IMG/VR virus record: IMGVR_UViG_3300037851_000222
Location: 30,994 to 94,993 of that record
Reading direction: 5' to 3' (one strand)
DNA from: a virus
Length of the DNA stretch: 64,000 nt
The translations under genes and the position numbers were made by a program. The stretch's first letter is position 1. Every line of letters starts with the position of its first letter. Below are positions 49,609 through 49,751 of the stretch, piece by piece. The notes under the pieces are model-generated. The model worked only from the letters and a program-made list of their open reading frames with translations. It was not told where the DNA came from and searched no databases.

Positions 49609-49675
49609 GTCGGGCAGTTGTGGGGCGAGGTTTGCAAACAAAAGGGATGGCATTTTCCCTGACAACTGAAGGCGG

Positions 49676-49751
49676 ACTGTTCATCGACCGGGTTGCCTGC
49701 GGCGCCCGGTCGCACTGTTCATCGCCTGGATTGCCTAGCGGCATCCAGGCG
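49676..49751 (+). repeat. Tandem pair of covarying hairpin repeats
   Basis: ACTGTTCAT-CGACCGGG/CCCGGTCG and ACTGTTCAT-CGCCTGGA/TCCAGGCG with conserved TTGCCT(A)GCGGC loop region. Confidence 0.85.

Follow-up and report, generated by a model that had tools for sequence, protein, structure and literature searches.

A tandem hairpin pair between an ORFan cassette and the next operon's promoter in an uncultured virus: candidate cis-acting 3′-UTR stem-loops

In an uncultured virus, we found three hairpins in the gap between an ORFan gene and a sigma-70-type promoter. The last two form a tandem pair that is real, statistically non-random and lineage-specific. We propose, with a probability of roughly 40%, that the three hairpins are putative + strand 3′-UTR stem-loops that would act in cis as an attenuator, a 3′-end barrier or a processing site between an ORFan cassette and a late operon. 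The tandem pair probably represents an ordinary type of intercistronic RNA structure whose conservation pattern is unusual.

The virus belongs to a poorly known group with genomes of ~90-150 kb, whose structural genes have no match in Pfam or PHROGs. The window that we analysed is 64,000 nt long and spans positions 30994-94993 of a linear 94,993-nt IMG/VR virus record, a viral contig with an estimated completeness of ~63%. Coordinates are those of the window unless a related virus is named.

Results

Three hairpins follow the stop codon of gene B

The following features are referred to throughout.

47706..48119, + strand: gene A, 137 aa by translation, the first gene of the insertion relative to L004
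48130..49608, + strand: gene B, an ORFan of 492 aa with its TAG stop at 49606-49608, 6 nt before H0
49615..49668, + strand: H0, a 54-nt hairpin with a 7-bp closing stem, found by folding
49676..49712, + strand: unit 1 (H1), a 12-bp hairpin (bulged T, 3-nt loop) preceded by a 9-nt leader
49714..49751, + strand: unit 2 (H2), with the leader and apex of unit 1, three compensated lower-stem pairs that differ, and a 4-nt loop
49758..49765, + strand: promoter-associated GTATAAAC motif, 6 nt past unit 2 and 7 nt ahead of the -35 hexamer
49773..49801, + strand: sigma-70-type promoter TTGCAC-N17-TATACT, by reading, with comparable -35/-10 pairs in L004, L006, L007 and L008
49887..51227, + strand: downstream gene, 446 aa, with 29 homologs and 38% identity to the L004 product
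51422..51973, in the + strand block after the 446-aa gene: 183-aa gene (a 'capsid candidate') without a Pfam or PHROG match
52024..52048, bidirectional: intrinsic terminator of the late operon, an 11-bp G+C stem with a 3-nt loop, a T-run after it and an A-run before it; it lies outside the hairpin element and serves as a comparison case

The hairpin coordinates had come from a sequence-only reading of the window, and they were confirmed by direct reading and by a repeat finder. The latter returned a direct repeat with a period of 38 (D1) and two inverted repeats (I17 and I12) that correspond to perfect 8- and 9-bp arms. Both units begin with the same 9-nt leader, ACTGTTCAT (49676-49684 and 49714-49722). 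The lower stem of unit 1 is formed by 8-bp arms at 49685-49692 and 49705-49712. Above it are a ninth pair, the wobble T49693.G49704, a bulged T49694, an inner GCC/GGC stem (49695-97 and 49701-03) and the loop TGC. Unit 2 has 8-bp arms at 49723-49730 and 49744-49751, a ninth pair T49731-A49743, a bulged T49732, the same inner GCC/GGC and the loop TAGC. Pairing is standard at 12 of 12 pairs in each unit, although three pairs have been altered on both sides and one on one side. Each unit folds at ~-21 kcal/mol (z -3.6 and -4.8). Thus, reading, repeat finder and pairing count all uphold the earlier description of two units that keep their leader and apex while their stems differ yet pair perfectly, and the closed structure described ahead of them at 49615-49668 is recovered as H0.

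A coding origin of the units was rejected: their 38-nt period is not divisible by 3, and a + strand ORF (49620-49763) reads them in different frames. ORFs on the - strand over the hairpins have low third-position G+C, as judged by eye. No tRNA or tmRNA was found, nor any diversity-generating retroelement or long repeat of the hairpin region.

A 24-nt stretch (49703-49726) comprising the 3′ arm of H1, the second leader and the 5′ arm of H2 shows 79% complementarity to 50003-50026, a segment of the same strand located 114 nt into the downstream gene; a rough hand estimate of the chance expectation is ~0.05-0.2. The 9-nt complement of the leader has one site in the contig (26632), and the complement of the apex has none. 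An antisense target was dropped as an idea because the sole leader complement is not in a high-GC3 frame and the apex complement is absent.

Folding weakly favours a + strand RNA

On the + strand, H0 has a folding energy of -18.0 kcal/mol (z -2.2), compared with -10.8 on the - strand (z -1.0), and its three G.U pairs exist on the + strand only. H1 and H2 fold roughly equally on the two strands. In unit 1, the ninth pair forms a U.G wobble on the + strand; on the - strand it would be a C.A mismatch. The entire 161-nt stretch folds at -69.1 (+) versus -57.3 (-). This asymmetry weakly favours a + strand RNA, because H0 folds well on the + strand alone and because unit 1 has its U.G wobble there.

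The opposite possibility is a small RNA from the - strand that would run from near the inverted GTATAAAC copy at 49800 to a weak hairpin-plus-T feature at 49660-49643. We consider it very improbable. Its end could be the terminator-like - strand site listed by our contig scan, but that scan returned 14 such sites against 14.2 expected after shuffling. H1 and H2 would fold in such an RNA as well as on the + strand, but H0 would fail to fold. There are no - strand genes in the surrounding 29-kb block, and GTATAAAC lies upstream of genes in both orientations, so an inverted copy needs no - strand transcript.

The stem changes are compensated and spare the leader and apex

The two units differ at nine positions. 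When nine random substitutions were placed on unit 1, all 12 pairs were kept in 0.4% of 2 million trials, and all pairs were kept together with at least three double changes in 7e-5 of trials. The contig has a single case of two such hairpins lying within 15 nt, and only 1 of 20 simulations produced one; TRF did not call the two-copy repeat. None of the nine substitutions touches the 9-nt leader or the 11-nt apex (P = 8e-4; P = 0.018 when compensated pairs are counted as single events, giving six events), in a comparison of two paralogous copies from one genome. Because all nine fall elsewhere, the 'unpaired' leader and the apex are under tighter constraint than the paired lower stem. This is the reverse of what a purely structural hairpin predicts, and the excess conservation suggests a sequence-specific partner, such as an RNase or an RNA-binding protein.

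The sequence-only reading had called the covariation direct evidence of selection on structure. The compensation is indeed far from random, but this wording is too strong, because only two paralogous copies are compared and because template switching at palindromes also makes compensated changes. Template switching is an established source of mutations at imperfect inverted repeats (PMC7202029). The element could therefore have no function at all: a palindrome would have been duplicated in tandem recently, and its arms reshaped by intrastrand template switching (quasipalindrome correction) without selection. We find this reading rather unlikely. In its favour, neither the relatives nor the collections searched contain another copy of the element, and palindromes arise easily in this GC-rich genome, where a lone hairpin as stable as one unit is common. 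Perfect hairpins of at least 8 bp number 53 in the contig, whereas Markov simulations gave 25 +/- 4, and one quarter of random 160-nt segments contain a 45-nt window that matches the stability of one unit. However, neutral decay should also strike the 20 leader and apex positions, which the nine substitutions miss, and the bulged T and the U.G wobble have been retained and not corrected to a perfect palindrome.

Related viruses have the promoter at this site and no hairpins

We read the homologous site in four relatives, among 29 contigs that carry homologs: L004/L009, which is G001 (IMGVR_UViG_3300037504_001427), L006, L007 and L008. G001 is 87.6 kb long with terminal repeats, and its 183-aa protein is 65% identical; for L006, identity is 87% across the 31 N-terminal residues present. 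All four relatives have a sigma-70-type promoter ~7-30 nt after the upstream stop codon, and hairpins are found at the homologous site in 0 of 4. The upstream neighbours in L004, L006, L007 and L008 are different, or none is shared with the window. The junction ahead of the promoter thus appears to be a variable spot, where an insulator would be useful after an insertion.

By tblastn, the L004 gene that adjoins the promoter corresponds to window 47207-47695. Therefore, window 47696-49752 is extra sequence, an insertion relative to L004 that carries genes A and B, with the hairpins at its 3′ (right) edge. The G+C content within it is 0.57-0.63, compared with 0.67-0.72 in the flanks. A 20-nt stop-RBS-start junction is exactly duplicated at 47692-47711 and 48116-48135, on either side of gene A. 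In addition, genes A and B share a short N-terminal stretch (47815-47834 and 48209-48228). The duplicated junction and the common stretch suggest duplication of a cassette or recombination at gene junctions. We propose that a ~2-kb ORFan cassette was recently inserted, with an older gene (47207-47695) on one side and the next operon's conserved promoter on the other. One perfect inverted repeat of 13 nt pairs 48012-48024, in gene A, with 49830-49842, in a hairpin of the downstream gene's 5′ UTR; it lies off the insertion boundaries and is probably due to chance.

The genes of the cassette say little about its role. Gene A has no Pfam or PHROG match; for gene B, searches of 5.8 billion clustered proteins and 1.84 billion representatives gave no full-length homolog. 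Only residues ~392-487 of gene B (window 49303-49590) have relatives; they form a widespread domain of ~90 aa with 850 representative homologs, which are mostly small stand-alone viral proteins and in some cases parts of polyvalent proteins that bear ART or Fic domains. The AF2 model of this C-terminal domain has a pLDDT of 90.8, and its best PDB match reaches only Z 4.2, which is unconvincing. For the function of genes A and B, Pfam, PHROGs, a PDB sequence search, the ESM Atlas, AF2 with Foldseek and VIA-align were uninformative, and neither gene has a recognisable RNA-binding domain.

The position of the hairpins exactly at the right-hand edge of the insertion raises the possibility that they work as DNA. 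Single-strand hairpins or cruciforms would then serve in recombination, as the scar or site of the insertion, in replication priming or in packaging. Y1/HUH enzymes, primases and N4-type RNA polymerase read DNA as a hairpin with a conserved single-stranded flank, and the units suit such a reading. We nevertheless judge it unlikely. The left edge of the insertion has no matching element, no transposase, integrase or HUH gene was found beside the hairpins, H0 does not have the core arrangement of attC, and the wobble pair and the + strand-only folding of H0 point to RNA. An integron attC site was rejected separately: H0 is closed by GTT...AAC, the reverse of the RYYYAAC/GTTRRRY order, and no integrase was found. 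The replication genes recognised in the contig are a primase, helicases, PolA and methyltransferases. A packaging or origin signal had been among the functions first suggested for the element. As it is absent from the homologous site in four relatives, and from the rest of the one relative that was searched in full, an essential signal of this kind seems unlikely.

The promoter and the operon downstream

Unit 2 ends 21 nt before the -35 hexamer. The promoter itself is absent from the list of our consensus promoter scan. Two inverted copies of GTATAAAC bracket the -35 hexamer and overlap the -10 hexamer (repeat finder I7), the overlapping one being the inverted copy at 49793-49800. The 8-mer has 15 copies in the 95-kb contig, where a base-composition estimate gives fewer than one. 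Within the window they are at 5666, 16181, 18446, 22829, 28482, 35668, 39835, 43459, 49758, 49800 and 53054, and four further sites lie to its left. Nearly all copies are 0-130 nt upstream of gene starts, and three are exactly 7 nt ahead of a TTGCAC or TTGCCC -35 hexamer. GTATAAAC is not present in the relative G001, and no consistent hairpins accompany its remaining sites. It probably serves as a regulator site or a promoter element specific to this lineage.

The homologous promoter of L007 has an inverted repeat (2851-2885), GTGTAAACAG / CTGTTTACAC, at its -35 hexamer, which the right arm of the repeat overlaps. This repeat parallels the pair GTATAAAC / GTTTATAC of the window, so that an operator-like dyad seems to be conserved in arrangement.

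The 446-aa product of the downstream gene has a basic N-terminal half, hydrophobic helices and Tyr/Gly repeats. A box, CAGC(G/A)TA(C/A)T, is found ~30-45 nt before the start codon of this gene in four of five related viruses (window 49853-49862; L004 ~4498-4508; equivalents in L006 and L007), and it could act as a second promoter of late type or as a site of processing. Further downstream, the 183-aa product belongs to a large family of viral proteins of 190-200 aa. The promoter had been labelled a capsid promoter. As a promoter it is backed by the four relatives, but the 183-aa product is no more than a candidate capsid protein. Likewise, the large proteins of the presumed structural blocks, including the - strand block at 1-22821, have no Pfam or PHROG match.

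The element appears to be a singleton, in a group that uses such elements

A covariance model built from the two units found no third copy in the window, in the remaining 31 kb of the contig or in the records of three relatives. Its weak matches, at 24526 and just left of the window, are ordinary and apparently coding sequence. Pattern searches for the leader and for the apex recovered only the two units in 95 kb of a contig that is ~63% complete. Rfam 15 gave nothing relevant on 2.5 kb, nor on 221 nt with permissive filters. In IMG/VR, leader-plus-apex patterns had one match, without a hairpin and in an apparent coding region, and a tandem-leader pattern matched 25 unrelated low-G+C or coding repeats. 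A strict leader-plus-apex pattern had four matches in 185,579 bacterial and archaeal species genomes, taken as one genome per species; none of the four has complementary arms, and all are ordinary unstructured sequence. The searches that had been suggested, with Infernal against Rfam and with a covariance model on related contigs, thus yielded neither a family nor a copy, and structural conservation is absent in the relatives. A conserved new RNA family is unsupported; the element appears to be a singleton in one uncultured virus.

G001 has a hairpin family of its own (L041). Its six copies, at 712-738, 794-822, 1902-1928, 2974-3000, 4974-5002 and 5386-5414 of that genome, have stems of 10-12 bp with an invariant CCCCAC outer stem, a CACCACA-type loop and compensated inner-stem changes; five of the six copies were taken into the alignment. 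They are on the coding (-) strand in the 5.5 kb proximal to the terminal repeat, each placed after a stop codon and ahead of the following RBS/ATG. Of the 54 perfect hairpins in G001, 22 are in its left 10 kb. G001 thus has its own intercistronic hairpin family, and therefore this general type of element is in use in this virus group. The family resembles the element described here in its invariant loop and outer stem, its compensated inner stems and its position between a stop codon and the next gene. It differs in that its sequence is unrelated and its six copies are not in tandem but dispersed over the early region, each ~40-55 nt before a start codon.

Could the hairpins bind a protein?

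The pattern of an invariant leader and apex on variable lower stems fits hairpins that are bound by a protein. The recognised parts would be the bulged U, the GCC/GGC apex and the 9-nt leader. Protein-bound hairpins typically have a bulged nucleotide three pairs below a small loop, as in the MS2 and PP7 operators and TAR, and the bulge in our units is placed in the same style. Such hairpins might serve as a decoy or regulator, for example as a mimic of a host CRISPR repeat or of an RNA antitoxin, or as the target of a viral RNA-binding protein. Phages do carry solitary mimics of CRISPR repeats (PMC10651486). Still, we hold this reading to be improbable, much as we do a role as DNA. The Rfam searches with permissive filters gave no match, including to the CRISPR-DR and ToxI models, and two unlike stems would not both mimic one repeat. 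The hairpins have no promoter of their own, whereas the RNA anti-CRISPR candidates were chosen for a promoter within 250 bp upstream (PMC10651486). Finally, no candidate partner was found, and genes A and B offer no recognisable RNA-binding domain.

One could combine protein binding with the cassette. The hairpin pair would then be purpose-built for a protein and form, together with its ORFan cargo, a lineage-specific RNA-protein module, each virus of the group having its own hairpin family as G001 does. A factor would read the invariant leader, the bulged U and the GCC/GGC apex, and the stems would differ so that each hairpin folds alone. Such a module would be, for example, a decoy for a host defence nuclease that cuts hairpins or the target of a viral processing enzyme. 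We regard this combination as decidedly doubtful.

Discussion

Our proposal is that the hairpins are cis-acting structures at the 3′ end of an mRNA. The consensus scan lists no promoter-like site ahead of them. Because only 6 nt separate them from the gene B stop codon, with no promoter in between, the gene B transcript must enter them. For the same reasons, and as Rfam holds no match, an independent ncRNA gene, which the sequence-only reading had allowed for, is not borne out. That reading had also mentioned antitermination or processing. Processing or attenuation fits the + strand bias given by H0 and its G.U pairs, but antitermination of the nut/put type does not fit, because the element is upstream of a promoter that is conserved in five genomes, and not downstream of it.

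In our model, RNA polymerase coming from the upstream genes would transcribe the hairpins, and the three stem-loops would form the 3′ untranslated end of the gene B transcript. The hairpins may slow read-through into the next operon or block part of it, acting in cis as a pause site or attenuator, and they may give the upstream mRNA a stable, exonuclease-resistant 3′ end. The A/U-richer single-stranded leader between the hairpins could be the site for an endonuclease or another factor. The unlike spellings of the stems would prevent mispairing between hairpins and would make the tandem repeat harder to delete.

Several known systems resemble this arrangement. Among them are the PeSL (promoter-early stem-loop) cassettes of T4-like phages, in which a promoter and a stem-loop that attenuates upstream transcription border ORFan insertions (Arbiol et al., 2010, PMC2839356; Comeau et al., 2014, PMC4122927); this role has been proposed and partly shown (PMC2839356). 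As in PeSLs, a stem-loop adjoins a sigma-70-type promoter in an intergenic gap, the element borders ORFans that are present in one phage and missing from a relative (here G001, by its L004 locus), and the proposed function is to block upstream transcription from entering the next unit, late virion genes included. PeSLs differ in being a repeated family of many, mutually recombining copies, whereas our element has no second copy in 95 kb of a ~63% complete contig. Moreover, three hairpins are present here, two of which are tandem copies that have diverged while keeping their leader and apex, and the phages with PeSLs are unrelated to this virus group.

In form, the hairpins resemble REP/BIME elements, which like other 3′ stem-loops reportedly stabilise mRNA (Newbury et al., 1987). 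REP/BIME elements act as exonuclease barriers, and they too are G+C-rich, imperfect palindromes of ~35-40 nt that often lie in tandem just past a stop codon and have no T-tail. However, REPs occur in tens to hundreds of copies and have a conserved GTAG end that is recognised by RAYT transposases. The flank here is ACTGTTCAT and not of the GTAG type, no family sharing this leader and apex was found in the 185,579 species genomes, and no transposase-like gene that could be a RAYT partner was seen in the Pfam and PHROG scans.

The hairpins share with intrinsic (Rho-independent) terminators a G+C-rich stem of ~-21 kcal/mol and a location 6-77 nt after the gene B stop, but they do not have the U-tract (at least 5 T in 8 nt) that the genome's own terminators have (52024-52048 and others). 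The T content after H1 or H2 is at most 4 in any 8-nt window, and the terminator scan omits both. Efficient intrinsic termination is unlikely because neither hairpin has a T-run, while the clear terminators of this genome are stems of G/C runs with T-tails.

Other systems were compared as well. Type III toxin-antitoxin RNAs of the ToxI kind consist of tandem, near-identical repeats of ~34-36 nt that precede an endoribonuclease toxin gene and are co-transcribed with it. We rejected this identity: a promoter separates our units from the next gene, that gene is kept in relatives without the units, and Rfam gave no match. Hairpin promoters of the N4 type have a 5-7-bp stem and a 3-nt loop and serve a virion RNA polymerase upstream of early genes. 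Here the stems are 12 bp long and bulged, and the next gene is preceded by a sigma-70-type promoter of its own; the incomplete contig showed no giant RNA polymerase. RNA anti-CRISPRs (Racr; Camara-Wilpert et al., 2023, PMC10651486) are likewise short phage hairpins with conserved flanks that lie outside genes. Unlike them, our element is without its own promoter and consists of two units that differ in their stems and have no spacer. The CRISPR-DR models of Rfam had zero matches at E values up to 10, in a collection that covers some repeat types only.

In sum, position, + strand bias, non-random pairing, insertion context, a variable upstream neighbour and the analogues all speak for cis-acting stem-loops. 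On the other side, the relatives do without any structure at the same junction, a passive barrier fails to explain why the leader and apex are kept more strictly than the stems, and the case is built on two copies in a single genome.

The element's status as a singleton limits its wider significance. Nevertheless, because its leader and apex have been kept more than its stems, it would make a small and clean test case for the sequence-specific recognition of hairpins. If the cis-acting reading is true, it would be another example of phages insulating newly acquired ORFan genes from essential late operons.
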